Source: an uncultured Anaerolineales bacterium
GTDB lineage: Bacteria > Planctomycetota > Phycisphaerae > FEN-1346
Direction of reading: 5' to 3'
Length of the DNA stretch: 64,000 nt
NCBI GenBank assembly: GCA_964461715.1
Contig: CAYWVR010000002.1
Location: forward strand, 76,453-140,452
Below, piece by piece: positions 5,239-54,388 of this stretch (its first letter is position 1; each line of letters begins with the position of its first letter). The position numbers and the translations under genes are program-made. The notes under the pieces are model-generated. The model worked only from the letters and a program-made list of their open reading frames with translations. It was not told the DNA's origin and made no database searches.

Positions 5239-7434
5239 CTAAACGGCGCTTTCGATGCCGGTGATCTCCCAGGAGCGTTCTTCGCCGCCCAGGGCTAATT
5301 CCACCGTGTCGCCCACGGATTTGCCCATGAAGGCGAGGCCGAGGGGCGTCCGGTAGTAGTAGACGCCCTTCTCGACGTCCGAGTCCCACGGGCCCAGGAA
5401 CAAGAGCCGCTCTTCTTGCCCCGTGACACGATTGCGGGCCGTGACGGCCGATCCGACCGAGACCGTGTCCCCGCCGCCCATCCCGGGACGCATGACGCGG
5501 GCCTTCGCAAGGCCCTCCTGCATGGAGTTGGCGCGTTCGGTGAGGCGATCGCGTTCCTCCAGGGCGGCGGTCCACTCGGCGTTCTCCGACAGGTCGCCGT
5601 GGGCGGCCGCGTCGCCGATGGCCTTCGAGTTGGCGGGCAGCTTGACGCGGATGAGCTCGTCGAGCTTCTCCCGGCGCTCCCGAAAGGCCTCCTCGGTGGT
5701 GTAGAGGATATCCTCTTCCCACGCCGGGAGGACCTTCTCGGCATAGAGGGAGGGGTGGGCGGCCCGCAGCAGCTCCAGGACCTTCATACGGGCCATGTCC
5801 GTGAGCCCCGCGTTCCGCTCCGTGGCGATCCGCAGGGCCCGGCCCTGGCCGACCTCGGTGTCCTTGACGACGGTCGCCAGGGCCGCATAGTCCCGGGCCG
5901 AGAGCACCCGCTGGACGTCGGAAGCGGCCGTGCGGGCCATGGGACCGGTCGTCTCGTCGCTCCGGGCGAGGGCGTCGGCGACGTTGAGCAGGGCGATGGC
6001 CAGGGCGACCTGCTCGGACGCATCCAGCTCGACCGTCGCCACAGGCCCCGTCGCGGCCTTCCAGAGCCACACCAGGGCCCCCGGGGCCTCCGTCGGCCGC
6101 GCCGGCGCCTCCCGGGCCGCCTCGGCCAAACGGGCGTCGTGGCCGGCGTCGGCAAGGGCGTCGGCGATCCACTCGGCGACCGCCTGAGAGGCCCCCGGCA
6201 GCGTCTGTGCGTAGGTTTCCGGCCATTCGTCCGACCGGCGGCGGACGAACTCGAGGATCGTGCGGACGATGCGGTCGCTGAGGAACGCGTCCGCGAGGGT
6301 CGCCACGCGGTCCGGGTCGGGCACCGGGTCGCCCTCTTCCGGCTCCTCGCCCAGCCTCTGCCGCACGGCCGCCCGGACGGCCCGAATGGCCAGCGAAAGG
6401 GCCTCGTCGAGGCCTGCGGGGCCTTCGGCCATCCGCGTGAGGGTCTCGTCGAAGTACGCCAGAGCGGCCCGTTCGCCCTCGCTCTCCTCGCCGTGCTCGG
6501 CCAAGTGGGCGAGGACGGCGTCGAGGCGGTCGACGGGCTCCTCGGTGGCCTCGAAATCCCGGCGGACCTGGTCCTCGAAGGCCAGGGGCCGATCCCGGAG
6601 GATGAGTTCCGGCTTCGTTCCCCCGGTCATCTCGAGCTGGGGCGAGCGTTTGAGGGCCGGGAGGGTGGATTTCCACCACTTCGGCCAGGCCCCCCGCGGG
6701 ATGATCGGCGCCAGGGCCCGCCGAAGGTCGTCATACGGCATCCGCGGGCCCGCCGAGACGAGCACGCGCCGCACCAGCTCCGCCGGATCGGATTCGGCCA
6801 GGGCGGCCAGCCGGTCGGCGTCGAAGGCCATGACGGCGGTGAAATCGTCCGCCGGGAGCTTCTCCAGGGCGTCCACGCCTCGCGCATCGTAGGTCTTGCC
6901 GCTCTCGCCGAAGGAAACCTCCAGGCCCGGCCGGTCGGGATCGACGCGGACCACACGTCCGGGGCTCTTGCGGCGGGGATCGCGGACGTAGGTGCCGGGG
7001 GGGAGGGCCAGGAGCTTCTCGATCTGCTCGACGGCCCCTTCGAGAGGCATGTCGGCCTTCCCGAACGTCATCGAAACGAGGATTTCGATGCCCTCGGCGT
7101 CCGCACAGGCGGCCCGGTAGACCTCAGCGGCCTGGTCGCGGAGGGTAGGCCGGTCGGGCAGCAGGTCGGCGCACCATCGGGCCAGGTCGCGGGCCTCGGC
7201 GGGTCCCTGCCGCTCCAGCGTCTCGGAGAGGAGATACCAAGCGAGCGATTCGAGTGGCCGGGCGGCCTCCTTTTCCGCCAGGATCCGCAGCACCGCCACG
7301 CAGGCCGAGGGCGGGACGGCGTCGGACTCCAAGGCCTCCAGCCAGGCGGCCTCCAGGTCGTCATAGGCTTCCTGCTCCGCCAGGGCCGCCAGCGGGGCCG
7401 CTTCGGTCGGAAGGTCGGTATCGGCGTCGCTCAT
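5239..7434 (-). CDS. GreA/GreB-family transcript-cleavage factor domain fused to a ~550-aa acidic N-terminal extension of unknown function
   Basis: The C-terminal ~160 aa (…EKLDELIRVKLPANSKAIGDAAAHGDLSENAEWTAALEERDRL…VSVGSAVTARNRVTGQEERLLFLGPWDSDVEKGVYYYRTPLGLAFMGKSVGDTVEL…) is a complete GreA coiled-coil plus FKBP-like domain. The N-terminal 550 aa is Asp/Glu/Ala/Leu-rich with no recognised domain. Confidence 0.75.
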   Translation of the reverse strand: MSDADTDLPTEAAPLAALAEQEAYDDLEAAWLEALESDAVPPSACVAVLRILAEKEAARPLESLAWYLLSETLERQGPAEARDLARWCADLLPDRPTLRDQAAEVYRAACADAEGIEILVSMTFGKADMPLEGAVEQIEKLLALPPGTYVRDPRRKSPGRVVRVDPDRPGLEVSFGESGKTYDARGVDALEKLPADDFTAVMAFDADRLAALAESDPAELVRRVLVSAGPRMPYDDLRRALAPIIPRGAWPKWWKSTLPALKRSPQLEMTGGTKPELILRDRPLAFEDQVRRDFEATEEPVDRLDAVLAHLAEHGEESEGERAALAYFDETLTRMAEGPAGLDEALSLAIRAVRAAVRQRLGEEPEEGDPVPDPDRVATLADAFLSDRIVRTILEFVRRRSDEWPETYAQTLPGASQAVAEWIADALADAGHDARLAEAAREAPARPTEAPGALVWLWKAATGPVATVELDASEQVALAIALLNVADALARSDETTGPMARTAASDVQRVLSARDYAALATVVKDTEVGQGRALRIATERNAGLTDMARMKVLELLRAAHPSLYAEKVLPAWEEDILYTTEEAFRERREKLDELIRVKLPANSKAIGDAAAHGDLSENAEWTAALEERDRLTERANSMQEGLAKARVMRPGMGGGDTVSVGSAVTARNRVTGQEERLLFLGPWDSDVEKGVYYYRTPLGLAFMGKSVGDTVELALGGEERSWEITGIESAV

Positions 7435-9120: not shown

Positions 9121-10188
9121 CTAGAAGGTGACCGAGAGGGAGATGACGACCGTGTTCGACCGACCGAAATCCGGCTCCAGCTCCGGGAACATGTGGCTCT
9201 GGTAGGCCACGTCCAGCGAGAACCAGTCGCACGGATAGATGCCCAGCCCCGCCCCCCAGGCCGTGTTGCCGCGCCCGTCGATCGTCACGCCGCTCCGTAC
9301 GTAGAACCCGTCACAGAGCTGGTGGTCGACGCCCACCATGAACCGGTGGACCTGGAGGCGGCCCGTGTCGTCGTGGAACGAGCCGAACTGGTAATCCGCA
9401 TAGACGAGCGAATCGGGCAGGTATTCGTAGGACAGGCCGGGGCGCAATAGGTACTGGTGGCCCGTGTCCTTGATCCGGGCGCCCGTGCCCGGCCCGAAGA
9501 CGGGAAAGATCGTCGTCCGCGAGGGGCTGAAGGCGTAATCGAACACCACGCCGCCGAGGAGCTTGTCGCAGATGCGGCCCAGGACGCCGAATCGCCAGCC
9601 GTACGTCTCGCCGAGGGCGTCGGCGAAGTCGATGTGGCCGGGCAGGTCGAGCTCGGTGTTCGTGCGGGCATAGTTGAAGTTGGCGCCGAAGGCGAAATCC
9701 TCGTTGACGCGTCGGCCCCACTGGAGCTGGAAGACGTCAATGTCGAGGCGAAAATCGAGACCGTCGCGCCGTCTCCCGCGGGTCGAGCGGGCCTGGGCGA
9801 AGGCCGGCTGGAACGTGCCGTGGTCCGGCGTCTGCCACGTCATGGCCTCCGCGGCCACGTGGATGTCCGTGTCCTCGTGGAAGTGGAGACGGGCGTACTG
9901 CGGGCTGAAGGAGAGGTTCAAGTCGCCCGGAATGGGCGTCCAGGCGACGGCGGCCGGGTTGATGGACGAGGACCACTTGCTGCCCGCCGAGGCCCCGCCG
10001 GCCCCCGCCACGTCGCCGTAGGGCGAGAATCGGCTGAGGGCCGCCGGAAGCCGAAGCGACAGGTCCTTGTCGTCGAACCCGCCGGCCCGAGAGACGCCGG
10101 CCGTCAGCAGAACCGCGACCGCTCCTGCGGCCGACACGAGGGCCCGGCCGATCCAGACACGTCCGTTCATGGCACGCTCCTCCTGCAA
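9121..10188 (-). CDS. outer-membrane beta-barrel protein (putative porin)
   Basis: Signal peptide (…RALVSAAGAVAVLLTAGVSRAGG). The sequence shows alternating amphipathic beta-strand pattern rich in Tyr/Gly/Asp/Phe, and the last residue is Phe (…VISLSVTF), the beta-barrel assembly signature. Confidence 0.7.
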   Translation of the reverse strand: MQEERAMNGRVWIGRALVSAAGAVAVLLTAGVSRAGGFDDKDLSLRLPAALSRFSPYGDVAGAGGASAGSKWSSSINPAAVAWTPIPGDLNLSFSPQYARLHFHEDTDIHVAAEAMTWQTPDHGTFQPAFAQARSTRGRRRDGLDFRLDIDVFQLQWGRRVNEDFAFGANFNYARTNTELDLPGHIDFADALGETYGWRFGVLGRICDKLLGGVVFDYAFSPSRTTIFPVFGPGTGARIKDTGHQYLLRPGLSYEYLPDSLVYADYQFGSFHDDTGRLQVHRFMVGVDHQLCDGFYVRSGVTIDGRGNTAWGAGLGIYPCDWFSLDVAYQSHMFPELEPDFGRSNTVVISLSVTF

Positions 10189-10367: not shown

Positions 10368-11771
10368 GTGCCTTTGGACGGACTGCATCTTGCCCTGGGG
10401 GGCCTGCTGGGGGCGGCAACCGTCGTCGCGACGTGGGCGCTGACCGCCTGGGGCCGGGCCCGGGCCGACGCCCGCGACGCCCGCGACGCCCTCGCCCGCC
10501 GCGAGGACGACCTCGAGCAGACCCGCCGCCGGGCCCGCGCCTTGGCCGTCATGGCCAATAGCGCCAAGGCCATGCGCAACGAGTTCCTCTCCAACATCAG
10601 CCACGAGGTCCGAACCCCCATGAACACCGTCATGGGCATGACCGAGCTGGCCCTCGGGACCGAGCTCTCGGAGAAGCAGCGGCGGTACCTGGAGCGGGTC
10701 CGCGAGGCCGGGGCCTCGCTCCTGGGACTCCTGAACGATCTTCTGGACCTCTCGAAGATCCACGCGCGGCGGCTGCGCGTCGTGCCGCACGAGTTCCACC
10801 TCCGCGACTGCCTGGGCGACATCACGCAGCGGTACCGCGGGAGGGCCCGTCAGAAGGGCCTGACCCTCGTGACGGAGATCGCCGACGACGTGCCCGACGA
10901 GGTCATCGGCGACGCGGGTCGGCTGCGGCAAATGGTCGGGGCGCTGCTCTCGAACGCGGTCAAGTTCTCCGATGGGGGCACCGTCGAGCTCCGGGGCCGG
11001 CTCGTCTCCCGCGAGCGCCAGCGGGCGCTCGTGGAACTGGCCGTCCGCGACGAGGGCGTCGGCATCCCCCGGGCCCGGCAGGCCGCCATCTTCGAGGCCT
11101 TCAAGCAGGTCGACGGCAGCGAGACGCGCTCGGCGGGCGGCGTGGGCATCGGGCTGGCCATCGCCGCCGAGGTCGCCCAGATGATGGGAGGACGGATCGA
11201 CGTCGACAGCCACCCCGGGCGCGGCAGCACGTTCACGCTGACCATCCCCCTGGCCCTGCCGCCCGGCGTGGCCGAGGCCCTGGACGCGGTGCGTCCTTCG
11301 CTGGCGGGGCGGCGGGCCCTGGTCGTCAATGATCATTCCGAGATGCGCGAGGCCCTGGCCGACATGCTCGCCGCCGAGGGCGTCGACGTGCTCCAGGCCC
11401 CCAGCGGGGCGGCCCGGCGGCACCTGGCGGGGGCGGCCGCGGTGGACCGCCCCTTCGACGTCGTCCTCGTCGACGGTTCCGCCCCGCGGACCGACGCCCC
11501 GGCCCTGGCGGCCCAGTTGCTGGAGACCGGCTGGCTGGACGGGGCCCGGCTCATGGTCGTGACCTCCGCCGGCCACCGCGGAGACGCCGCCCGATGCCGC
11601 GATCTGGGCGTCGCAGCGTACCTGACGTTCCCGCTGAGCGCGGAGGACCTGGCGGAGGCCGTGGCCATGGCCCTTCAGGGCCCTGCGGAGGGCCATCCAC
11701 ACCTGATCACGAATCACGCGGCACGCGAGCGGCGCCAGGCGGCACGCCCGACATCCCCCGCCGGGGCCTGA
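10368..11771 (+). CDS. hybrid sensor histidine kinase / response regulator
   Basis: N-terminal TM helix. HisKA H-box FLSNISHEVRTPMN; HATPase N/G boxes (LLSNAVKFS… DEGVGIP… GGVGIGLAIA); C-terminal receiver domain (…RALVVNDHSEM…FDVVLVDGS…). Confidence 0.85.
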   Translation: MPLDGLHLALGGLLGAATVVATWALTAWGRARADARDARDALARREDDLEQTRRRARALAVMANSAKAMRNEFLSNISHEVRTPMNTVMGMTELALGTELSEKQRRYLERVREAGASLLGLLNDLLDLSKIHARRLRVVPHEFHLRDCLGDITQRYRGRARQKGLTLVTEIADDVPDEVIGDAGRLRQMVGALLSNAVKFSDGGTVELRGRLVSRERQRALVELAVRDEGVGIPRARQAAIFEAFKQVDGSETRSAGGVGIGLAIAAEVAQMMGGRIDVDSHPGRGSTFTLTIPLALPPGVAEALDAVRPSLAGRRALVVNDHSEMREALADMLAAEGVDVLQAPSGAARRHLAGAAAVDRPFDVVLVDGSAPRTDAPALAAQLLETGWLDGARLMVVTSAGHRGDAARCRDLGVAAYLTFPLSAEDLAEAVAMALQGPAEGHPHLITNHAARERRQAARPTSPAGA

Positions 11772-14165: not shown

Positions 14166-14999
14166 ATGGCCGACGTGCAAGCGAGCTGGGACCCGGCCTA
14201 CGCCGGGATGGTCGAGCGCAACATCGGGCTTCTCAAGCCCGAGGAACAGGAACGCCTGCGGACGGCCCGCTGTGCGGTGTTCGGGACGGGAGGGCTCGGA
14301 GGGGTGGCCTTCGAGGTCCTCGTACGGAGCGGAGTGGGCCACTTCAACATCGTCGACAAGGACGCCTTCGACGCCTCCAACCTGAACCGCCAGATCCACG
14401 CCACTCGCAAGACGATCGGCCACGTCAAGGTCCAGGCCGCCCGCGAGCGAGCCCTCGAGATCAACCCCACCGTCGAGGTCGCCACCTGGGAGCGCGTCGA
14501 CGGGGAGACCGTCCGGGAGATCCTCCGCGGGGCCGACGTCGCCGTCCAGGCCATCGATACGCTGCGGGCGTCGCTCGTCCTGTCGCGGGCGGCCCGCGAG
14601 ATGGGCGTCCCGTTCGTCGAGGGATGGGCCATCCCCTTCCCGAATTGCCGCACCTTCACCGCCGAGACGCCGAGCCTCGAGGAAGCCTACGGTCTGCCGA
14701 CGGCGGATCGGGCCGTCTCGGACATCCCGGACGAGGAGATCCGGAAGCTCCAGACGAACCTCCTGTTCGGACTCGGGCAGATCGAAGGGGTGGGGGACTT
14801 CTACGATCAGGCCACGATCGACCGGATCGCCGCGGGACACCTCTCCTCGTTCGCCCCCATGGTCTGGGGCACGGCCGTGATGGTGGCCACCGAGGCCCTG
14901 AAGGTGCTGCTCGGCTGGGGTACGCTCGCCCTCGCTCCGCGCTTCGCGGTCTACGACCCGTACGAGCACCGGATGCCCGGGATCCTGCCCGCTCCTTAG
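14166..14999 (+). CDS. ThiF/MoeB/HesA-family E1-like nucleotidyltransferase (TcdA/CsdL-like small form)
   Basis: Rossmann GxGxxG (VFGTGGLGGVAFEVL) followed by IVDKDAFDASNLNRQIHA… No C-terminal CxxC zinc motif or rhodanese domain. From memory it resembles the TcdA subgroup. Confidence 0.7.
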   Translation: MADVQASWDPAYAGMVERNIGLLKPEEQERLRTARCAVFGTGGLGGVAFEVLVRSGVGHFNIVDKDAFDASNLNRQIHATRKTIGHVKVQAARERALEINPTVEVATWERVDGETVREILRGADVAVQAIDTLRASLVLSRAAREMGVPFVEGWAIPFPNCRTFTAETPSLEEAYGLPTADRAVSDIPDEEIRKLQTNLLFGLGQIEGVGDFYDQATIDRIAAGHLSSFAPMVWGTAVMVATEALKVLLGWGTLALAPRFAVYDPYEHRMPGILPAP

Positions 15000-15013
15000 G
15001 CCTTAGGACGCCG

Positions 15014-15895
15014 CTAGGCGGGCGAGATCTCGGTGGTATCGCCTCGGCAGACGGCCCGGAAGAGCGTCCCGCCCCATCGTTCCCGCAGCGCCGTCCGCTC
15101 GCGGTCCGTGAGCCGCGCGAGCAAGTCCAGGCGACCCGCCACCAGCTCTCGCAGGCGCATCGGGTCGCCGAAGGTGCGGCGGTTCATGATCTGCCAGAAA
15201 CGGGCGTAATCGACGTAGGGGTTGGCCTCCAGGAGCCACGAGACCAGGAACGCGCGCCGACCGAGCCGCCGATCGGCCTCGCGAGCCCGGTCGGCCAGGC
15301 AGGAGAGGCTGAGGCGCCGTCCCGTGGGCCGGTCGCCCCACGGCTCGAAAAGGACCACGGCGTCGAAGACCGTCCCGCCGCAGCCGCAGAAGAGGTCGTC
15401 GGCCCCGCCCGCAGCGGCGACGGCCGCGGCCGCCCGCGCCAGCTCCGCCCAGACGGGGAAGGCCGCATCAGGGGCCGCGCATCCGACCATCTCGGCCGCC
15501 TGCCGGCCCATGGAACGCAGGCACGCGAGAGCCCGGCCGAAGGGAGCGTCGCCCGGAAGACCGAACGTCACCGAGTCCCGCACCACGGCCAGGGCGGCGA
15601 CGGGCCGGTCGCCGATCTCGGCCATGAGGACGGCCGTCTCCTCCTGTGCCATGCGCACCGCCGACAGCGGGACGCCGCCGACCGTCTCCCAGCCCTTCGG
15701 GGGCGCGAGCAACAGCCGTCCCGCCGACGTCAGGTCCTCGGGGGTCACGGCCCGCCTGACGCGGAACCGTGTCGTGTCGTCTCCGCTAAGCCACGCGCGC
15801 CCGATCCTCGGGCTGCGTGCCAGATGTTCCATGCCGATCGGGATCATCGGAGGCCTCCATCGGTCCTTAGGCCGTCGGCGGCGATTCCGCGGCAC
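15014..15895 (-). CDS. FeeM/LuxI-like GNAT-fold N-acyltransferase paralogue A (full length; possible real start at MEHL, 15832)
   Basis: Shares the N-terminal block (…TRFRVRRAVTPEDL…AALAVV…) and the C-terminal ~50-aa block (…DPMRLRELVAGRLDLLARLTDRERTALRERWGGTLFRAV…) with paralogues B and C. The track start is GTG. Confidence 0.55.
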   Translation of the reverse strand: MPRNRRRRPKDRWRPPMIPIGMEHLARSPRIGRAWLSGDDTTRFRVRRAVTPEDLTSAGRLLLAPPKGWETVGGVPLSAVRMAQEETAVLMAEIGDRPVAALAVVRDSVTFGLPGDAPFGRALACLRSMGRQAAEMVGCAAPDAAFPVWAELARAAAAVAAAGGADDLFCGCGGTVFDAVVLFEPWGDRPTGRRLSLSCLADRAREADRRLGRRAFLVSWLLEANPYVDYARFWQIMNRRTFGDPMRLRELVAGRLDLLARLTDRERTALRERWGGTLFRAVCRGDTTEISPA

Positions 15896-16232
15896 ACATC
15901 ACTTGCGCGAACGTCGCGGGACCCCAGAAGGCCCGCAGCCAGTCGCGCTCTTGGCTCGTGGCACGGCCCAGGAGGCCGCTTTGCTCGATGAAGAGGCGCG
16001 CGAGAGCCCTCGGATCGTCGAAGAGATCGCCCGCCCGTTCGTTCCATTCGGCCACGGCAATGAAGGTGGCCATGTCGGGCGAGGCCTCGTCGACGCCAAG
16101 GACGGCCGCGCCCGCGGTCGTCTCGGCCACCAGATGGTGGGCCTCGCTCAGCTCATCGACGGTGAGGGCCCGGCGGATGGTTGTGCCGCGGGTGTCGGCA
16201 CCGAAGAGGCCGAGGCGCGTCAGGAGGGCCAT
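15867..16232 (-). CDS. FeeM/LuxI-like N-acyltransferase paralogue B: internally deleted mini-copy (~122 aa from MALLTRLGLF…), keeping only the N-terminal and C-terminal blocks
   Basis: MALLTRLGLFGADTRGTTIRRALTVDEL…MATFIAVAEW joins directly to …LFDDPRALARLFIEQSGLL…ERDWLRAFWGPATFAQV. The catalytic GNAT core present in paralogue C is missing. Possible longer starts exist at 16316 or 16472. Confidence 0.4.
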   Translation of the reverse strand: MALLTRLGLFGADTRGTTIRRALTVDELSEAHHLVAETTAGAAVLGVDEASPDMATFIAVAEWNERAGDLFDDPRALARLFIEQSGLLGRATSQERDWLRAFWGPATFAQVMCAAESPPTA

Positions 16233-16473
16233 CCGCCGCTCGACGCCTCCGGCGCGCGGCCGGCGCCGCGCGCGGCGGGACCGGGCGAGGTCCCGCTCCA
16301 GGGCCAGAAGGTCCATCCAGGAGGGTCGGGCGACGGACTGTGGGGGACGGGCCGCGGGAGAAAAGCCGGAGGGCGCCTGCCCTCGCGGGTCGGTCCCCAG
16401 CGGTCCCATCCGAATCCCCACGTCCTGTCCTTTCGGCGGTTGCGAGCGCGGCGGGCGGCGGGCCGAAGGCATC

Positions 16474-17382
16474 CTAGCACACCGGCACGGCCTGGCCCAC
16501 GTCCCCGGTCACGGCGGCAAAGGTCGCGTCACCCCAGGCCCCGCGGATGGCCTCGCGCTCGGGGCGCGTGCATCCGGGGATCAGGCCGCTGTCCTCGACG
16601 AAGAGCCGCCGGAGGGCCGACTGGTCGTCGAACAGCGTCCGGGCCTCGGCGTCCCACGCCTTGACCTGCTTGCGGTAGGGGTTGCTGACGAGGCAGCGAA
16701 TCTTGATGAAGAGGGTCGCGCTGTCGCTGTCGTCGTTGGCCTGCTCGGCCCGGGCGATCAACTCGGCGACGTTGACCCGCATCACGACCACCGGATCGTC
16801 GGTCTTGCGGGAGTAGCTGCGCACGTCGCTGACCTGCGTGAAGCCCAGGAGGTTGAAGAACCGGGCGTGGCCGGGGCTGACGGTAGTGATGAGTTCGTCG
16901 CATCCGACGGCCAGGCCGTGGGCGAACATGCACCGCATCAGCTCCGTGGGCACGGCGCTCTTGCGGTACTCGGGGGCAATGGCCTGGTTGGTGGCCTCGC
17001 AGACCCGCCGCCTGCCGACCCGAAGCTCGTCCAGCACGTCCTGGAACGCGTCGTCCGAGGGCAGCCCGAGATGCGGCCCGTCGACGGCCAGTCCCTGGAC
17101 GCCCACGACCTTTCCGTCGGCCACAGCGATGAAGGTGGCCATGGACGGCAGGGCCTCGAAGGGACGCATGCGGAGTCCGGTCGCCGTCGGCTGGATGTAG
17201 CCCTGCTCGGCGAACGCGTCGTGGACGAGCCGATAGCCCTGGATAAGGTCATCGTCGGTGACGGCTCGGCGGATGACGGCGCCGCGGGTGTCAGACCCGA
17301 ACAGACCGGCCCGCCTCAGCAGCGCCATCCGGCGCGAGGCCCGGGCCGATTCCGCGTCCCCCCTCCCCTTGTGGACCTTCAT
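16474..17382 (-). CDS. FeeM/LuxI-like GNAT-fold N-acyltransferase paralogue C (N-acyl amino acid synthase-like)
   Basis: Core …YRLVHDAFAEQGY…MATFIAVADGKVVGVQGLAV…RVCEATNQAIAPEYRKSAVPTELMRCMFAHGLAVGCDELITTVSPGHARFFNLLGF… matches the autoinducer-synthase/FeeM acyltransferase fold. A strong SD (AGGAGGGAG) lies 6 nt before the ATG at 17382. Confidence 0.6.
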   Translation of the reverse strand: MKVHKGRGDAESARASRRMALLRRAGLFGSDTRGAVIRRAVTDDDLIQGYRLVHDAFAEQGYIQPTATGLRMRPFEALPSMATFIAVADGKVVGVQGLAVDGPHLGLPSDDAFQDVLDELRVGRRRVCEATNQAIAPEYRKSAVPTELMRCMFAHGLAVGCDELITTVSPGHARFFNLLGFTQVSDVRSYSRKTDDPVVVMRVNVAELIARAEQANDDSDSATLFIKIRCLVSNPYRKQVKAWDAEARTLFDDQSALRRLFVEDSGLIPGCTRPEREAIRGAWGDATFAAVTGDVGQAVPVC

Positions 17383-18346
17383 AGCTTCTCCCTCCTACAG
17401 ATGACGAACGCCTTTCCCCTTGTTCCCATCCTGCCTACTTCCCCAGTTTGCCCCAATTTACCACCCTGTCAAATTTCACACCGGATGCGTAAACCAGAGA
17501 TGCGACGGAAGATCGTAAAACGTTTTTTGACAAGGACTTACAGAGAGATGTGACGCGGGGCCGCTTTTTCGGCCGGCACCGTCGGCTGCGCAACACCGTC
17601 GATTTTCGCCGGGTTTCTTCGCCCAGAGGCATCGCATCTGTCCGGGAAGTCGACCTCCGAAAGTGCTTCGGAAGGCCCGACTTCTCCGCCCCAGACCTGC
17701 CGCCGACCCGCTCGGCGTGAAGCGAGTCCGGCCGCCGTGCCGCTCACCCCCGACGTCGGGGGCGAACGCGTAGCCGCATGGGGGCGAAGATCAGCGGACA
17801 GAGAGACCCGGCTTGCGCCGAATCCTTGAGGGAGGGAAATGCTGTCAGTCTGGTCGTCTTGCGGTAGCGCCCAATCCAGCCGTTGTCCTTCTGCTATCCG
17901 CCTCGACGAGTGGAGTATGGCACGGAGCCGTGCTCTATCAGAAAGATTCCCCTCTTCCCGGTCCCCTCTATCCCCGCTACAGCCCTGCACCTACGTCACG
18001 GCCCGCCCGACCGGGCATCGGTTCAGGTCGTCACTCACGTCTGATAACTGCGATCCGCATGCCAACTCCCGGCAGAATTCCGATCTGTTTGATCCGGCCG
18101 TAAGCGCTTGTCTAAAAAGCACTTAGAACAAGAGTCCACGGTTTCGGGCCGTTCCCCCGGAGGCCGACCCGCCGCCGACCGTTGCCCCAGAGCAACGAAC
18201 TCGCTCGCGAAAGCGTTCTTCTTGGGACGTTAACCCTTGCGAACAAAGGACTTAAGGCCCGTTCCTCCGCATGCAACATGAGTTTCAACGCCGCAACAGA
18301 GAGGGCCGTGAACGCGAGGCACCCGCGATCCGGAGGGCCTGGAACG

Positions 18347-38097: not shown

Positions 38098-39477
38098 ATG
38101 ACGCCACGCGTCTCATCCCGAGACGACGTCCGACGTCGCCGCCCCAAGGGTGCGCGCCCTCATGTCTGCATGTTCGTCAACAACCCGGGCCTGCGGGACC
38201 CGCGCGTGACGCGTGAGGCCGAGGTCGCGGTCGAGGCGGGATTCGACGTGACGGTCGTCGCCTGCCAGAACCACGACGAGGACGGTCCGACGCGCGTCCT
38301 CCAGCGGGGCGTGGAGTTCCTGCGGCCCAAGGTCGGGTCCAGCCGTCTGGCCGGGGCCTTGAGGCACGTCCTCGGCCTCCGCCGGACGTTCTCCGCATCG
38401 CCGGCCGCGCCCCGCGAGGCGTCTCCGTCCGCAGACGCGTCGGCGACGGCCGCGGAAAAGGCAAGGCCCAGTCTGATGCGTCGCCTGCACGGATGGGGAT
38501 GGGGATGGCGGCGGACGCTGGTCAGCCTCGGCCAACGGATTCGTCTCGGCCTTGCCGTGTCGGCCGACGCCTACCATGCGCACGACTGCGACACCCTTCC
38601 GATCGCGTGGCTCTGCGCGCGCCTGCGCGGGAAACCCTTCATCTACGACTCGCACGAACTCTGGGTCGATTGGAAACGGATGCGCGGGGCCGGCCGATGG
38701 CGCCTCGCACTTTGGAGGGCGCTCGAAGCGACCTTCTGCCGGCAGAGCGCCCTATGCGTGACGGTCAGCGAGGGACTGGCGGAGATTCTGCGGCGCGAAC
38801 TGGGCTTGAGGCGACTGGCCGTGGTCCGGAACTGCGCCCGGCGGCCGCGGGCGCTCCCGACGGACACCCACCTCGCCGGCCGCGCCCAGGTCCGGGCGGA
38901 GCTGGGCCTCGGGCCCGACGCGCCGGTCACGATCTATCAGGGCGGCCTGTGGCCCTACCGGGGACTGGAGACGCTGATCCGTGCCGCGACGCACGTGCCG
39001 AAGGTCTCGGTCCTCATCGTCGGCCCGATCACACCGTACGCGGAGTCGCTCCGCGCCCTGTCGATCGAGCACCGTGCGGCCAACGTCCGCTTCCTGGGCC
39101 ACCAGCCGGAGGAGCGGCGGTCGGCGCTGATGGGCGCGGCCGACCTGGGAGTCGTCCTGATCCAGGACGGAGGGTTGTCGTACCGGCACTCCTTTGCCAA
39201 CAAGAACGGCGAGTACTTCGCGCACGGCCTTCCGGTCCTGGCGTCGGACCTGCCGGAGCATCGTCGGGTGCTGATGCGTGTGGGCGCAGCCCTGCTCGCC
39301 GACCCGGAGTCGGCGTCCGACGTGGCGGCCAAGATACAGGCATTCTTCAGGATGACGAAAGCCCAGCGGCGCGGGCTCGCCGCCCTCGCCCGGTCCTTTG
39401 TGGACCGGGAGCTGAACATGGACGTGCAGTTCCGCCCCGTCCTAGACTTCTATCTGGCCCTCGGGCGGAACCGGTGA
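38098..39477 (+). CDS. GT4-family glycosyltransferase (tandem paralogue 1)
   Basis: GT1 C-lobe motifs (…IYQGGLWPYRGLETLIRA…VLIVGP…FLGHQPEE…ADLGVVLIQD…NKNGEYFAHGLPVLASD…). The N-terminal 175 codons are near-identical to the next gene at DNA level. Confidence 0.8.
   Translation: MTPRVSSRDDVRRRRPKGARPHVCMFVNNPGLRDPRVTREAEVAVEAGFDVTVVACQNHDEDGPTRVLQRGVEFLRPKVGSSRLAGALRHVLGLRRTFSASPAAPREASPSADASATAAEKARPSLMRRLHGWGWGWRRTLVSLGQRIRLGLAVSADAYHAHDCDTLPIAWLCARLRGKPFIYDSHELWVDWKRMRGAGRWRLALWRALEATFCRQSALCVTVSEGLAEILRRELGLRRLAVVRNCARRPRALPTDTHLAGRAQVRAELGLGPDAPVTIYQGGLWPYRGLETLIRAATHVPKVSVLIVGPITPYAESLRALSIEHRAANVRFLGHQPEERRSALMGAADLGVVLIQDGGLSYRHSFANKNGEYFAHGLPVLASDLPEHRRVLMRVGAALLADPESASDVAAKIQAFFRMTKAQRRGLAALARSFVDRELNMDVQFRPVLDFYLALGRNR
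38164..38678. repeat. ~515-bp direct repeat, copy 1 (≥99% identical to 39552-40066)
   Basis: Direct comparison of the two stretches gave only two mismatches (gtgacg/gtaacg and gaact/gagct) over ~515 bp. Flanking sequence on both sides is diverged. Confidence 0.8.
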
Positions 39478-39482
39478 CGGAC

Positions 39483-40856
39483 ATGACCTCGAGTCGCTCA
39501 ACATGCCGCGACACCGTCGTGGAGGCGATCGCCCGCCCCGCGCGCGTGCGCGTCTGCATGTTCGTCAACAACCCGGGCCTGCGGGACCCGCGCGTAACGC
39601 GTGAGGCCGAGGTCGCGGTCGAGGCGGGATTCGACGTGACGGTCGTCGCCTGCCAGAACCACGACGAGGACGGTCCGACGCGCGTCCTCCAGCGGGGCGT
39701 GGAGTTCCTGCGGCCCAAGGTCGGGTCCAGCCGTCTGGCCGGGGCCTTGAGGCACGTCCTCGGCCTCCGCCGGACGTTCTCCGCATCGCCGGCCGCGCCC
39801 CGCGAGGCGTCTCCGTCCGCAGACGCGTCGGCGACGGCCGCGGAAAAGGCAAGGCCCAGTCTGATGCGTCGCCTGCACGGATGGGGATGGGGATGGCGGC
39901 GGACGCTGGTCAGCCTCGGCCAACGGATTCGTCTCGGCCTTGCCGTGTCGGCCGACGCCTACCATGCGCACGACTGCGACACCCTTCCGATCGCGTGGCT
40001 CTGCGCGCGCCTGCGCGGGAAACCCTTCATCTACGACTCGCACGAGCTCTGGGTCGATTGGAAACGCATGGGCGGCGTGGGTCGCGTACCCGTCGCCCTC
40101 TGGGAGATGGCCGAGCGGGCGTTCGTCCGGCAGGCCGCCGCGTGCGTGACGGTCAGCGAGGACATGGCGGCGTTGCTGAAGCGCCGCCATAGCCTCGGCT
40201 GCATGCTCGTCGTCCGGAACTGTCCCCGCCGAGGGACCTCGGAAGCGACCGTGCCGCGCGACGTCGCCCGCCGGGCGTGCGGCATCGAGAACGGCCAGCG
40301 GATCGTCCTCTACCAGGGCGGCCTTTGGGCGAACCGCGGACTCGACGTCCTGGTCGAGAGCGCCCGGCACGTCCCGGAGGTGGACGTTCTGCTCGTGGGG
40401 CGGCTCAATTCGTACGGGGCCGGGCTCCAGCAGATCCGTCGCGACCTGGGCTGCCGCAACGTCCGTTTCCTGGGCCACAGGGACGAGGCCGAGCGCAACG
40501 CCTTGATGGCCGCGGCGGACCTGGGCGTCGTCCTGACGCAGGACCGCTCGCTCTCATATCGGCTGACCCTGTCAAACAAGATCTTCGAGTACTTCGCGAA
40601 CGGGCTGCCCGTGCTGGCGTCGGACCTGCCGCCCCACCGGCGGATTGAGGCGCAGACGGGCGCCTGCCGGCTCACGAATCCGGAGGACGCGGTGATTCTG
40701 GCCGAGGACATCCGCCGCTTCTTCTCGATGGACGAAACCGGTCGGCGCCGGATGGGCGAGCGGGCCCGCCGCGCCGCCCTCGACCAACTCAACATGGAAC
40801 GCCAGATGACCCCGCTCCTCGAACTCTACCGCGGCGTCGCGCGGATCGGGCGATAG
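39483..40856 (+). CDS. GT4-family glycosyltransferase (tandem paralogue 2)
   Basis: Same architecture as the preceding gene. The 3' two-thirds are diverged (…LYQGGLWANRGLDVLVESA…LLVGR…FLGHRDEAE…ADLGVVLTQD…NKIFEYFANGLPVLASD…). Confidence 0.8.
   Translation: MTSSRSTCRDTVVEAIARPARVRVCMFVNNPGLRDPRVTREAEVAVEAGFDVTVVACQNHDEDGPTRVLQRGVEFLRPKVGSSRLAGALRHVLGLRRTFSASPAAPREASPSADASATAAEKARPSLMRRLHGWGWGWRRTLVSLGQRIRLGLAVSADAYHAHDCDTLPIAWLCARLRGKPFIYDSHELWVDWKRMGGVGRVPVALWEMAERAFVRQAAACVTVSEDMAALLKRRHSLGCMLVVRNCPRRGTSEATVPRDVARRACGIENGQRIVLYQGGLWANRGLDVLVESARHVPEVDVLLVGRLNSYGAGLQQIRRDLGCRNVRFLGHRDEAERNALMAAADLGVVLTQDRSLSYRLTLSNKIFEYFANGLPVLASDLPPHRRIEAQTGACRLTNPEDAVILAEDIRRFFSMDETGRRRMGERARRAALDQLNMERQMTPLLELYRGVARIGR
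39552..40066. repeat. ~515-bp direct repeat, copy 2
   Basis: See copy 1; the offset between copies is exactly 1388 bp. Confidence 0.8.
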
Positions 40857-40865
40857 GAGAGCGTC

Positions 40866-41843
40866 GTGCCTGAATCCCGACCGGAAACCTCCCGGCTGAC
40901 CCTCGCCGCGGTTATCCCCGTCTACAACCAGCGGGAGACCGTGTGTGCGGCCATCGACAGCGTCCTGGCTCAGACGCGGCCGGCCGACGAGATCATCGTC
41001 GTCGACGACGGGTCGACGGACGGGTCGGGGGACCTGGTGGCCCGCCAGTACGGCGACCGCGTCCGCCTCATCCGCCAGGAGAACCGCGGCGCGGGCGGAG
41101 CCTTCAACACCGGCATCCGCGCCGGCTCCACCGACCTCATCTCGCTCCTCGGCGCCGACGACGGATGGATGCCCGACCGGCTCGAGAAACAGGTCGCCTT
41201 TATGGAGGCCCATCCCGACTGCATGCTCAGCTTCACGGCCGCCGAGCTTCGCGACGAGATCAACGACCGCGTCCTTCTCGAGAACACCGAGATCGACAAG
41301 GAGCGGTACGTCACCCGGTACTTCTTCCGCGACGAGAACCTTCCCGCCGGCAACGGCGTCATGGTGCGGCGGGAGGTGTTCGAGGAGCTCGGGTACTTCG
41401 ACGAATCGCTCCGCCGGTGCCAGGACACGGACATGTGGCTGCGGATCATGATCCGCTACGGCTTCGAGCACATCCCCGAGCCGCTCGTCTGGGTCCACCG
41501 GGGGCAGCATCGCACGATGACGGACCACTCGAAAGGCTTCCGGTACCACGAGGTGTATTACGCGAAGCACCGGTACACCTTTGGTCGCGGGTGGCGCGGC
41601 CAGGCCATCTGGCGGGCCGGATACGGCGCGGCCCTGCGGTTCCACGCCATCTGGTACTTCCGCCAGAAGAAGGGCGGCCTCGCGATGCGCGAGCTCATGA
41701 AGGCCGTCCTCGTCTGGCCCTTCTTCAACCCGACGTGGGTGGTGCGGGCGGCTTCCGAGTACCTCCTCGGCACCGCCGCCTACGATCATGTCGTCTCCCG
41801 GGTCAAACGGTTCCCCGGACTGCGTCCCGAGGCGAGGGGATAG
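40866..41843 (+). CDS. family-2 glycosyltransferase (soluble GT-A)
   Basis: AAVIPVYNQRETVCAAIDSVLAQTRPADEIIVVDDGSTDGS… plus DXD (LLGADDGW). 325 aa. Confidence 0.8.
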   Translation: MPESRPETSRLTLAAVIPVYNQRETVCAAIDSVLAQTRPADEIIVVDDGSTDGSGDLVARQYGDRVRLIRQENRGAGGAFNTGIRAGSTDLISLLGADDGWMPDRLEKQVAFMEAHPDCMLSFTAAELRDEINDRVLLENTEIDKERYVTRYFFRDENLPAGNGVMVRREVFEELGYFDESLRRCQDTDMWLRIMIRYGFEHIPEPLVWVHRGQHRTMTDHSKGFRYHEVYYAKHRYTFGRGWRGQAIWRAGYGAALRFHAIWYFRQKKGGLAMRELMKAVLVWPFFNPTWVVRAASEYLLGTAAYDHVVSRVKRFPGLRPEARG

Positions 41844-44248: not shown

Positions 44249-45606
44249 AGACCTTGCTGTTCCTGGCCGGTTTTGTGGCGGCCACCGTCGGGTGTCTCTG
44301 GTTCCCGCTGGCGGGGGTCCTGGGATACGTCCTGCACTACAGCATCGGACCGGAACGCCAGTGGTGGGAGGCCCCGATCAGCCACCTCCACCTGCGCTAC
44401 TCGTTCACGCTGGCAGCCGCCACGGCCATCGGTTTGCTGCTCCACCATCGCAAGCTCCGTTGGGGCGACCGGCTCCTGACGAAGCAGGAAGTCCTGATGC
44501 TCGTGTTCCTGGGCGTGGTGTGGCTCACGTTCCTGATGGGCGACACGACGCGGGAGTCAAGCGCGGTCGTGGATCACCCCTCCATGAAGGTCACAAAAGT
44601 TTTTATCTTCACGCTCATGTTAACACACATCGTGACGAGGCAACAAGACCTGAACCTCCTGTTCTGGGCCTTCACCAGCGGCGCTTTGATCCTCGGTCTC
44701 CAGGCTTACTACACGCCGCGGTACATGTTCATGCAAGGGCGGCTCGAGACGATCGGCGGCCCGGACTTCGCCGAGGCCAACAGCCTGGCGGCGTACCTGG
44801 CGGCCCTGCTGCCGATCATCGGCGTCCAGTTCATGCGGAGCCGCTGGCCGGCCCGCATCGCGTGCCTGGCGGCGGGGGGGCTCGCCTGCAACGCCATCAT
44901 CCTGACCCGAAGCCGCGGGGCGATCGTCGCGCTGGCCGCCGGGGGAATCGCGGCCCTCTTCATGGCCCCGAAACGGTACCGCGCAGCGGTGGCCGTCGGG
45001 CTGGTCGTGGCTCTGGTCGGGTTCGTGTATCTCGGCGACGTCGGCTTCATGGGCCGCATGAGCACGCTGAACTCCCCCGCGGGCGAACTCGACGAGTCCG
45101 CCCAGAGCCGCATCGCCATCTGGCGGGGAGGCCTGAAGATGATCGCGGCCCACCCGCTGGGCGTCGGGCCGGGCAACTTCCTCCAGACCATCGGCCACTA
45201 CGCGCCGAACCACGCGAATCGCGACGCACACAGCACGCTCATCCGCTGCGCCGCCGAGCTGGGCTTGGTGGGGCTCATCGTGCTCATCGTGCTGATCGTC
45301 AACGCCTTCCGCGTCTTGCGCAACACCCACGCCCGTCTCGTGCGCCACCGGTCCAAGGCCGACGCCCCCCTCCTCCTCTACACGTACGCCGCCATGTTGG
45401 CCCTGATCATCTACCTGATATGCGGCTTCTTCGGCTCGTTCGTGTACATCGAGGTCTTCTGGTGGCTGCTCGCGCTGCCCGTGTGCCTGAGCCGCGCCGT
45501 CGAGAACGCGGTCGCGCAGCCCTTGGAGGAGGGTGCGCCGAGCCGCAAACGCGCCGTCTCCCGCACGCGAAGCCGGACGCCCCGACCGCAAGTGGAGGTC
45601 ACGTGA
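44236..45606 (+). CDS. O-antigen ligase/Wzy-family polysaccharide polymerase (Wzy_C domain membrane protein)
   Basis: About 10-12 TM helices. The central large periplasmic loop …ILTRSRGAIVALAAGGIAALFM… and …IAHPLGVGPGNF…HSTLIRCAAELGLVGLIVL… are typical of the Wzy_C/O-antigen ligase family. Confidence 0.7.
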   Translation: MPPLKTLLFLAGFVAATVGCLWFPLAGVLGYVLHYSIGPERQWWEAPISHLHLRYSFTLAAATAIGLLLHHRKLRWGDRLLTKQEVLMLVFLGVVWLTFLMGDTTRESSAVVDHPSMKVTKVFIFTLMLTHIVTRQQDLNLLFWAFTSGALILGLQAYYTPRYMFMQGRLETIGGPDFAEANSLAAYLAALLPIIGVQFMRSRWPARIACLAAGGLACNAIILTRSRGAIVALAAGGIAALFMAPKRYRAAVAVGLVVALVGFVYLGDVGFMGRMSTLNSPAGELDESAQSRIAIWRGGLKMIAAHPLGVGPGNFLQTIGHYAPNHANRDAHSTLIRCAAELGLVGLIVLIVLIVNAFRVLRNTHARLVRHRSKADAPLLLYTYAAMLALIIYLICGFFGSFVYIEVFWWLLALPVCLSRAVENAVAQPLEEGAPSRKRAVSRTRSRTPRPQVEVT

Positions 45607-46982
45607 CCGTGCCGCACGCACTCCGAACCGCGATCTCCGCCGCCTATCACGCCCTCGCGCCGGCCCTCCGGCCGCGCGGGTTCATGGGCCGGTTTCGCGC
45701 GGCCCGGGCGGCCCGGGACGGGGCGGAATGGGACCCGCCCGAGGCGGTCTGGGCCCGTCAGCGCGACCGTATCAACGCGCTGCTCGAAACGGCGCGGACG
45801 CACGTGCCGTACTACCGTCGTCTGGCGGCGGTCGGCCGGATCCCCCCCCATATCGAGCGGCCGGAGGACCTCGCCGAGGCGCCGATCCTCACGAAGGCAA
45901 TCATCCGGGCCGAAGGGCGCGACCTGCTGGCCGAGAACTTCCCGCCCGAACGACTCCACGCCACGGCGACCGGCGGCTCGACCGGCGAACCGCTCCACTT
46001 CTGGAACGACGCCGACGCCGTCCTCGCCGCCAACGCCGGCGAAGCCTGGGCCCTGTCCGTTGCCGGCGTCGGCCTGGCGGACCCCGTGGCGTACCTCTGG
46101 GGGGCGGCCCGGTTCGAGCGGGCGATGGGGCGGGACCTCAAGGACCACCTCGTCCAGCTCCTGAACAACCGGTGCGTCGTCGACTGCTTCCACATGAAAC
46201 GCGACGATCTGGCCGCCGCCCATCGCCGGTTCACGCGGTTCGGCCCGGCGGCGCTGCTCGGGTACTCGAGCGCCCTGGTGGAGCTGGCCCGGTACCTCAA
46301 GACCGAGGGCCGCCGCCCGAGCTACCCGGACCGCGCGGTCATCAGCGCGGCCGAGGTCCTCGACGACGTCTCGCGCGAGGTGCTGGAGGAGACTTTCGGC
46401 GGGCCCGTCTTCGACCGGTACGGAAGCCGCGAGATGGGCCTCATCGCCATGGAGTGCGATCGGCATCGGGGCCTGCACGTCGACGCGGAGAACGTTTTCG
46501 TCGAGCTGGTCGAGGCGCCGGACGCGCCGGGCCTTTCGCGCATCGTCGTTACACGGCTGAACCAGTTCAGCATGCCGTTCCTGCGGTACGACAGCGGCGA
46601 CCTGGCCGAGGGCCCCCTCGAGACGTGCCCCTGCGGACGGGGGTACGCGGTGCTCAAGCGCGTCGTTGGACGCGTCACCGAGACGATCCGGTTCCCGGAC
46701 GGCGGCTCGCTGCCCGGCGAGATCTTCCCGCACCTCTTCAAGGACTGCGGGATCCTCTCGTATCGGGTGGTGCAGGCTGAGGACTACGCCGTCGACGTCG
46801 AGCTCGTGCGCACGCCCGACCAGACCGAGGCCCAGGACGCCACCCTCCGCCGCATCGTCCGCGAGCATCTCGGCAAGGACGTGCCGGTGACGTTCCGCTA
46901 CGCCGAGGCGATCGAGCGATCGCGCACGGGCAAGCTCCTGCCCGTCAGCAGCCATGCCCCGCGCGACGGAGGCTCCAGATGA
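45603..46982 (+). CDS. CapK/PaaK-like adenylate-forming enzyme (second of three in window)
   Basis: GTG start overlapping the upstream stop. …HATATGGSTGEPLHFW… is an AMP-binding-like motif. …FLRYDSGDL… (PaaK-type hinge; compare RYRTGD) and the C-terminal …RSRTGKLLPV… are present. Confidence 0.7.
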   Translation: MTVPHALRTAISAAYHALAPALRPRGFMGRFRAARAARDGAEWDPPEAVWARQRDRINALLETARTHVPYYRRLAAVGRIPPHIERPEDLAEAPILTKAIIRAEGRDLLAENFPPERLHATATGGSTGEPLHFWNDADAVLAANAGEAWALSVAGVGLADPVAYLWGAARFERAMGRDLKDHLVQLLNNRCVVDCFHMKRDDLAAAHRRFTRFGPAALLGYSSALVELARYLKTEGRRPSYPDRAVISAAEVLDDVSREVLEETFGGPVFDRYGSREMGLIAMECDRHRGLHVDAENVFVELVEAPDAPGLSRIVVTRLNQFSMPFLRYDSGDLAEGPLETCPCGRGYAVLKRVVGRVTETIRFPDGGSLPGEIFPHLFKDCGILSYRVVQAEDYAVDVELVRTPDQTEAQDATLRRIVREHLGKDVPVTFRYAEAIERSRTGKLLPVSSHAPRDGGSR

Positions 46983-54386: not shown

Positions 54387-54388
54387 CC

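Follow-up and report, generated by a model that had tools for sequence, protein, structure and literature searches.

A FeeM-type synthase subfamily with a C-terminal helical domain at the edge of a PEP-CTERM/exosortase polysaccharide locus

Described relatives of the cassette

Since 2011, N-acyl amino acid synthases (NAS) have been known to be linked with PEP-CTERM/exosortase systems, and to our knowledge this link has no mechanism. The cassette described here consists of three adjacent open reading frames (ORFs) on the minus strand, called C, B and A in order of falling coordinates. It lies on contig CAYWVR010000002.1 in a 64-kb stretch of DNA with ~70% GC, which was the stretch examined and is called the window below; all coordinates are window positions. 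The cassette is a variant of the known synthase-exosortase association, not a new kind of system. On balance, we favor a reading in which C is the synthase of an exosortase-linked lipoamino-acid pathway, A is a partner with altered or no catalysis, and B is a remnant.

In a methanotroph, a mutant in an exosortase-linked synthase gene has been built and tested for polysaccharide band formation (PMC11072679). With the exosortase-linked FeeM-type synthases, C has in common its fold, its family, the catalytic Glu, and an exosortase/PEP-CTERM polysaccharide locus alongside. It differs from them in having no match to the exosortase-acyltransferase model and in its constant partner, a PaaK-like ligase. 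FeeM itself (188–198 aa) and the Pfam model lack an N-terminal motif and a ~75-aa C-terminal helical domain, both of which C has.

The putative cluster for stieleriacine (N-acyl dehydrotyrosine) in the planctomycete Stieleria maiorica Mal15 contains four synthase genes, a ThiF-family gene, a PEP-CTERM protein and adjoining polysaccharide genes (PMC7293339), and the pathway is still only postulated (PMC12078418). Compared by gene content, that cluster and this locus both have multiple NAS genes with a tandem pair among them, a ThiF-family gene (annotated TcdA in the stieleriacine cluster), a PEP-CTERM protein and polysaccharide genes. The tyrosine C-methyltransferase and fatty-acid desaturase of the stieleriacine cluster are not seen here, whereas this locus, unlike that one, has the PaaK-like ligase, an Amidohydro_2 protein, a short-chain dehydrogenase/reductase (SDR) and a histidine kinase.

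Acyl-oxazolones are made by OxzA/OxzB of Pseudoalteromonas rubra (bioRxiv 10.1101/2020.06.11.147165) and by TyzA/TyzB/TyzC of M. tuberculosis (PMC10404671; reviewed in PMC12596934). In these pathways the acyltransferase uses acyl-coenzyme A (acyl-CoA), and a ThiF homologue cyclizes the N-acyl amino acid in an ATP-dependent step (PMC10404671; bioRxiv 10.1101/2020.06.11.147165). The acyltransferase is a FeeM-fold N-acyltransferase of ~320 aa encoded beside the ThiF homologue, and PRK14852 is a fusion of FeeM and ThiF. A FeeM-fold gene adjoining a ThiF gene is found here as well, and also in the related loci L003 and L006. The ThiF protein of this locus is of the PRK08223/PRK14851 type, with a weak match to the Rv1355c family (3e-14).

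Copy C and the subfamily it defines

The three ORFs and the parts of C that matter for its assignment are as follows.

16474–17382, minus strand: copy C, intact FeeM-subfamily N-acyl amino acid synthase, 302 aa
15867–16472, minus strand: copy B, with 201 aa in the longest ORF and 180 aa according to gene callers
15014–15847, minus strand: copy A, divergent A-type paralogue, 277 aa from the ATG at 15847 (longest ORF 15014–15895)
17278–17334, minus strand: N-terminal family motif of C, RRMALLRRAGLFGSDTRGA, conserved in the alignment and upstream of the Pfam FeeM model
16771–17235, minus strand: FeeM/GNAT catalytic core of C, residues 50–204, including the Glu of VCEATNQ
16504–16722, minus strand: C-terminal helical block of C, ~75 aa in 6–7 short helices, family-wide

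C matches the Pfam family FeeM (PF21926) across the whole model (3e-36, 125 bits; gathering score 27 bits). In a scan of NCBIfam at E up to 1, its sole match was PRK14852, a 989-aa hypothetical protein with a FeeM-like N-terminus and a ThiF middle; A and B had no match. None of the three matched the NCBIfam model for the exosortase-associated acyltransferase at E up to 1; this model we take to be TIGR03694 (PEP-CTERM/exosortase system-associated acyltransferase), presumably part of NCBIfam. The only sequence in the PDB that C matches is FeeM itself (2g0b), over residues 14–185 of C counted from MALL, and the Glu of VCEATNQ in C aligns with the Glu of LAEVVQF in FeeM. The corresponding residues, Glu95 of FeeM and Glu103 of Nas354, are the proposed catalytic base, and mutation in Nas354 abolished activity (PMC4897644). 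C appears, from its residues, to be the catalytically competent enzyme of the cassette.

C also has the FeeM/LuxI-like GNAT fold, which raises the reading that the enzymes are LuxI-type acyl-homoserine-lactone (AHL) synthases producing quorum-sensing signals. We regard it as very improbable. C differs from the LuxI-type AHL synthases (LasI and TofI, as well as the CoA-dependent RpaI and MesI) in having no Autoind_synth match (PF00765, E up to 1) and no LuxR partner, no LuxR-type gene being present among the scanned ORFs of the window. An earlier note on this DNA had proposed a FeeM/LuxI-like acyltransferase with its core kept in C and probably in A. The FeeM assignment stands for C, which is not LuxI-type by sequence; for A, what was found is a partial match with the catalytic Glu kept.

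When C was searched against 5.8 billion proteins, 119 matches were obtained, mostly 300–324 aa long and covering 96–100% of C. Their named sources are Planctomycetota, Phycisphaerae, Chthoniobacter, Gemmatimonadetes and metagenome-assembled genomes (MAGs) labelled Anaerolineales. Throughout all of the C homologues aligned, the N-terminal motif RR[ML]ALL.RAGLFG.DT.GA.I.RA and the C-terminal block NPY...W...A...F.D...L..LF......L..C...E...I...WG...F..V are conserved, and the blocks are therefore a family trait, not a peculiarity of this locus. In the predicted structure, the N-terminal motif of C is modelled as a short helix and loop ahead of strand 1, and residues 203–274 form the 6–7 short helices of the C-terminal block with a predicted local distance difference test (pLDDT) score of 91–96.

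No known domain was recognized in the C-terminal block. In Pfam searches of the whole proteins, nothing fell in the block except a non-significant Sigma70_r4 match in A (E 0.11), searches of 24 isolated C-terminal blocks gave nothing, and in a profile search of the block against PDB sequences the lowest E was 0.64. Querying 1.84 billion representatives with only the block, phmmer returned 50 proteins. The block follows a FeeM core in all of the sequences inspected among them, and the short matches inspected were N-terminally truncated full-length genes, with no free-standing blocks and no B-like forms. The block was thus rightly called unassignable by the earlier note, but it is not specific to the locus, since the 119 homologues carry both terminal blocks. 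As aligned, the subfamily architecture is a FeeM core with an N-terminal RRMALLRRAGLFG motif and a ~75-aa C-terminal helical domain, and the C-terminal block is the signature of an undescribed FeeM subfamily. No prior description of the subfamily, of its PaaK-like partner, or of paired or fused paralogues was found in the literature accessible to search.

A carrier-like role was considered for the near-invariant Cys of the block, which sits at a helix N-terminus like the modified Ser of acyl carrier protein (ACP). This was rated unlikely because several otherwise intact members have Leu, Ser or Trp in its place (L005_1, P0060, P0082, and P0123 in its second half) and no ACP-like fold match was found.

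The earlier note had also allowed that the ORFs might be artefacts of high GC, and many long spurious ORFs on both strands do overlap the cassette region. We give virtually no credence to the reading that all of the ORFs arose in this way. C matches a Pfam family and a fold specifically and has its 119 homologues, periodicity at the third codon position (GC3) is strong in A and C (0.88–0.92), and synteny is kept across phyla; for C and A the artefact is excluded by homology. GC content at codon positions 1/2/3 (GC1/GC2/GC3) is typical of coding sequence in C (0.69/0.47/0.92) and A (0.74/0.58/0.89). The signal is weaker in the homologous part of B (0.71/0.54/0.84), and only the 80 codons upstream of RRMALL in B look non-coding (0.81/0.70/0.82, rich in Pro, Arg and Gly). 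Ribosome-binding sites of the GGAGG type lie 5 nt ahead of the ATGs of C and A, the ATG of C at 17382 being preceded by AGGAGGGAG. No site as good as these is found at the start of B, whose first ATG (16472) lies 1 nt past the stop of C (TAGGATG).

Several noncoding features flank or lie within the cassette. Between C and the upstream SDR gene, ~960 nt (17383–18346) contain no convincing ORF and no Rfam match, and GC falls to 0.43–0.6 at 17400–17600; presumably the stretch serves the cassette as promoter/leader. At the other end, a long hairpin at 14977–15033 (-33.9 kcal/mol, z -2.1 versus shuffles) spans the 14-nt gap between the convergent stops of ThiF and A and is a possible bidirectional terminator. 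Rfam gave spurious sub-threshold matches only, among them the mir-3099 match at this hairpin. A terminator-like hairpin with a T-run (16369–16384, minus strand), lying past the stop of C and ahead of the family-homologous part of B, was not beyond shuffles (z -1.5) and was set aside.

Two altered paralogues, A and B

C and A align along their full length with 30% identity in BLASTP (E 1e-13). Against C, B aligns as two blocks, one with 37/73 identical residues (E 4e-15) and one with 27/52 (E 6e-13), and has no counterpart of C residues ~90–239; its match to A is confined to the C-terminal block (E 5e-5). These similarities are far beyond chance, and the three adjacent minus-strand paralogues are accordingly real, as the earlier note had it. 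They are not, however, the tandem triplication it proposed. In a neighbor-joining tree of the window copies and 24 copies from related loci, A groups with L005_2, L012_3 and L020 in a separate, deeply branching clade, C lies among C-type copies, and B stands beside C on a long branch. Since A belongs to an ancient separate clade, the cassette is not a recent triplication. A is placed as the ortholog of L005_2, and the apparent triplication is differential retention of old paralogues. Tandem pairs of such paralogues are the norm in related loci.

L002, L003, L004, L025: tandem pairs of two C-type copies
L005: C-type plus A-type pair
L024: A-type-like plus C-type pair
L012: three copies
A JGI contig: tandem pair

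In addition, whole FeeM-subfamily pairs are fused head to tail in one chain in P0123 (585 aa) and P0148 (608 aa). Such fusion suggests that the paralogues act together and that the tandem pairs work as a physical unit.

Copy A matches Pfam FeeM with 9.4e-7 and 29.2 bits (cut-off 27), over model positions 31–121 of 158 only. Its divergence was gauged against a family-invariant set of 68 positions that are conserved in at least 90% of C-type proteins, of which the A-type copies keep the following numbers.

Window copy A: 33/68
L005_2: 39/68
L020: 48/68
L012_3: 55/68

The catalytic Glu (AAEMVG) and the LP.D..F...LR segment are retained in A. It has lost H36, R53, R55, N114, H137 and the SPGH motif, and it lacks the TELMRC..AH and SPGH segments that L012_3 and L020 keep. 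Many of its substitutions are shared with L005_2 (R53P, T65V, C110A, C133A and C253L are identical in the two), so the degenerate form is older than the divergence of these lineages and has been kept as an intact gene in at least two of them, which argues for a retained but altered function. A protein search with A returned only the query, its word index being saturated; relatives exist (L005_2, L024).

This bears on whether A and C could each be a fully active synthase in its own right, the two differing in acyl or amino-acid specificity and together giving mixed N-acyl amino acids, a minority possibility that we take seriously. Such a product mixture from multiple NAS has been proposed for the four synthases of the stieleriacine cluster (PMC7293339), and A fits the idea in keeping the catalytic Glu and the LP.D..F...LR motif, in its good coding signals, and in having an ortholog in L005. 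It fits poorly in retaining no more than 33 of the 68 invariant positions, in lacking the TELMRC..AH and SPGH segments of its better preserved clade members, and in a Pfam match that is partial and barely over the cut-off; moreover, the fused pairs elsewhere point to physical cooperation. We therefore prefer A as a partner of C with altered or no catalysis.

Family homology in copy B is limited to 15867–16238, from RRMALL to the stop, and comprises two blocks.

16050–16238, minus strand: N-terminal block of B, RRMALLTRLGLFG ... MATFIAVA, 9 codons deleted internally
15900–16049, minus strand: B C-terminal block, EWNERAGDLFDD ... WGPATFAQV, joined straight to the N block, the 153-codon core missing

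The blocks of B and C are 71–83% identical at the DNA level. Their registers are offset by 1096/1069 nt in the N block and by 610 nt in the C block, which gives an in-frame deletion of 459 nt (153 codons) and a further one of 27 nt in B. The in-frame deletion joining the terminal blocks that the earlier note had read from the sequence is thereby borne out, with a second deletion added. B has no Pfam FeeM match and cannot be a synthase, because all core elements, including the catalytic Glu, are lost.

The same note had suggested B as a decoy or adaptor, and B might indeed be a functional short protein whose helical domain acts as an adaptor, decoy or regulator competing for the partner of the C-terminal domains of C and A. 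The frame is open, the ATG at 16472 is placed 1 nt after the stop of C and would permit coupled translation, GC3 is 0.84, and the sequence is the same in four contigs of the population. In the retained parts, 19 of 24 invariant residues are kept, and in the AlphaFold2 model the helical block is predicted at pLDDT 79–92. The N half of that model reaches only 54–70 (predicted template-modelling score 0.46), so it is not predicted to fold, and Y32, H36, G43, the near-invariant Cys and nine further codons (including R53 and R55) have been lost. B also evolves 3–4 times faster than C: in Tajima-type counts with nine outgroups, 18–24 changes are unique to B versus 4–11 unique to C (p <0.02 in 7/9). 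Over the 113 shared codons, the Nei-Gojobori omega is 0.60 for B versus C, as opposed to 0.19–0.46 for intact pairs on the same codons, which implies near-neutral change on the B branch. B has no strong ribosome-binding site, and at 70% GC chance alone often leaves a long frame open. Finally, a search of the 5.8 billion proteins with B found nothing but B itself, and no B-like architecture occurred among the inspected matches in the 1.84 billion representatives. We consider a functional B improbable. Most likely, it is a decaying, lineage-specific remnant of a C-type copy.

Some observations weigh against decay, namely the open frame, the 19/24 invariant residues and the confidently folding helical domain. 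The omega values are rough, with dS near saturation, and no single-nucleotide polymorphism (SNP) in A or B was seen among near-identical strains. The population data on A and B are uninformative: three near-identical contigs (99.84–99.97%) have 0 SNPs in A or B and 1 in C. That sole SNP of the cassette is the non-synonymous Q254P (window position 16622), seen in L021 and L023 and lying inside the C-terminal helical block. As to its origin, B is closest to C (61/113), yet it shares TRLG and TVDEL with second copies of relatives; it could be either an ortholog of the 324-aa second copy that is intact in L003 and L004 or a younger duplicate of C.

Neighborhood and proposed pathway

Around the cassette lie a plus-strand operon that converges on A and a set of minus-strand genes upstream of C.

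10368–11771, plus strand: hybrid histidine kinase/response regulator, first gene of the plus-strand operon; synteny kept in L003 and L004
11805–12731, plus strand: Amidohydro_2 metal-dependent hydrolase/decarboxylase, co-occurring with ThiF in L003 and L006
12742–14139, plus strand: PaaK-like adenylate-forming enzyme, 465 aa, the most constant neighbor of this FeeM subfamily
14166–14999, plus strand: ThiF/E1-like adenylyltransferase of the PRK08223/PRK14851/PRK14852 type (PF00899, 1e-42), convergent with A, syntenic in L003 and L006
18347–19234, minus strand: SDR oxidoreductase, on the upstream side of the cassette; synteny kept in L003 and L004
19368–22320, minus strand: three PEP-CTERM proteins, the first conserved beside FeeM genes of relatives
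57873–59549, plus strand: exosortase EpsH–EpsI fusion, at the distal end of the same polysaccharide locus

Homologues of the PaaK-like protein (28–46% identity) lie beside FeeM genes in 13 loci (L002–L009, L011, L015, L020, L024 and L025). ThiF and Amidohydro_2 recur in L003 and L006, and most related loci have the PaaK-like gene without ThiF. In L006, the FeeM, Amidohydro_2, PaaK-like and ThiF genes are all co-directional.

Beyond the PEP-CTERM proteins comes Bac_transf and then a polysaccharide/exosortase locus of ~35 kb with Poly_export, Wzz, AAA_22, a tyrosine-kinase-like ATPase, a FemAB-like gene, glycosyltransferases, Wzx and Wzy, at the end of which a giant TPR protein accompanies EpsH/EpsI. 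The cassette was thus correctly placed near a PEP-CTERM island, with PEP-CTERM genes at 19368–22320 and the exosortase locus reaching 59549. In relatives, Bac_transf, PEP-CTERM protein and Poly_export genes are likewise near FeeM genes. L002, L024 and the JGI contig have polysaccharide-export and PEP-CTERM genes beside them, and EpsH/EpsI are called in L002 and L024. By gene content, Planctomycetota, Verrucomicrobiota and allied MAGs carry the subfamily at the margin of PEP-CTERM/exosortase polysaccharide loci.

Among the individual neighbors, the 407-aa PEP-CTERM protein at 19368–20591 (minus strand) has no Pfam domain, and its homologues adjoin FeeM genes in L002, L004, L006–L010 and L024; it may be a specific cargo or partner of the module. 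The PEP-CTERM protein at 20588–21496 (minus strand) carries a Peptidase_C39_2/C10-like cysteine-protease domain. By tblastn it has a homologue in L024; Peptidase_C39_2 genes are also called in L025 and, together with a PEP-CTERM hit, on the JGI contig. An outer-membrane beta-barrel-like protein at 9121–10188 (minus strand) has weak PorV and OMP_myx_plus matches, and its homologues (42–63% identity) accompany the FeeM/PaaK-like module in L005, L015, L020 and L025. Farther away, the 731-aa protein at 5239–7434 (minus strand) ends in a GreA/GreB transcription elongation factor (last ~150 residues) preceded by an N-terminal extension of ~570 aa with no Pfam match. Within the polysaccharide locus, four stretches (39477–40866, 45606–46979, 50739–52890 and 54386–57873) hold no ORF with genome-normal GC1/GC2/GC3, and several frames have GC2 above GC1.

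In the pathway that we favor, the PaaK-like ligase would activate the acyl donor. C would then acylate an amino acid at its amino group, with acyl-CoA or acyl-ACP as donor of the fatty (or aryl) acyl group and the conserved Glu as base. A would work with C as a partner whose catalysis is altered or absent, a partnership suggested by the pairs that relatives usually carry and that are sometimes fused into one chain. Where present, the ThiF homologue may adenylate or cyclize the carboxylate of the N-acyl amino acid, like OxzB and TyzB, and the amidohydrolase and SDR could then modify the product. The pathway would thus yield a molecule of the lipoamino-acid type, linked to matrix or biofilm formation that depends on the exosortase.

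Several points tell against this scheme or loosen it. What the sequences show is homology, fold, the deletion in B, the family distribution and synteny; the pathway, substrates, order of steps, product and biological role of C and A we infer from these, and what speaks for the partnership of A and C comes solely from the pairs and fusions of other genomes. A itself may be inactive, given the residues it has lost. The PaaK match is weak (E 1e-9 to 1e-4): the two ends of the protein align partially and weakly with PaaK models and structures, with the SSSGHSG and YRTGD motifs visible and no Pfam match. Furthermore, the Oxz/Tyz pathways require a nitroreductase-family oxidase, and none lies near this cassette. 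No nitroreductase (PF00881) was found among the scanned ORFs of the window, including every called ORF at 5.2–26.8 kb, a few poorly coding stretches far from the cassette having been left unresolved. An unsaturated tyrazolone made by the same route is therefore unlikely as the final product, and the ThiF step may lead elsewhere than in Oxz/Tyz.

A more specific proposal, which we regard as a long shot, is that the module of FeeM pair, PaaK-like protein, ThiF and amidohydrolase, kept at the margin of PVC-type exosortase loci, makes an activated N-acyl amino acid that serves as lipid donor or acceptor in exosortase-dependent PEP-CTERM/polysaccharide anchoring, with the helical domain docking the synthase to its partners. 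Because no oxidase is present, the activated product would be a saturated oxazolone (or an adenylate). If true, the link between synthase and exosortase, long unexplained, would gain a mechanism in chemical terms.

In any case, the striking features of the cassette resolve into the retention of old paralogues, a gene remnant, and a domain that is subfamily-wide yet unassigned. The analysis defines a separate, uncharacterized synthase subfamily with its own extra domain, a near-constant PaaK-like partner, and paralogues that usually come in pairs and are sometimes fused, ranging over Planctomycetota, Verrucomicrobiota and related uncultured bacteria. Some of these genomes add a ThiF enzyme of the kind that cyclizes N-acyl amino acids in oxazolone pathways, and concrete gene sets are now available for heterologous expression.

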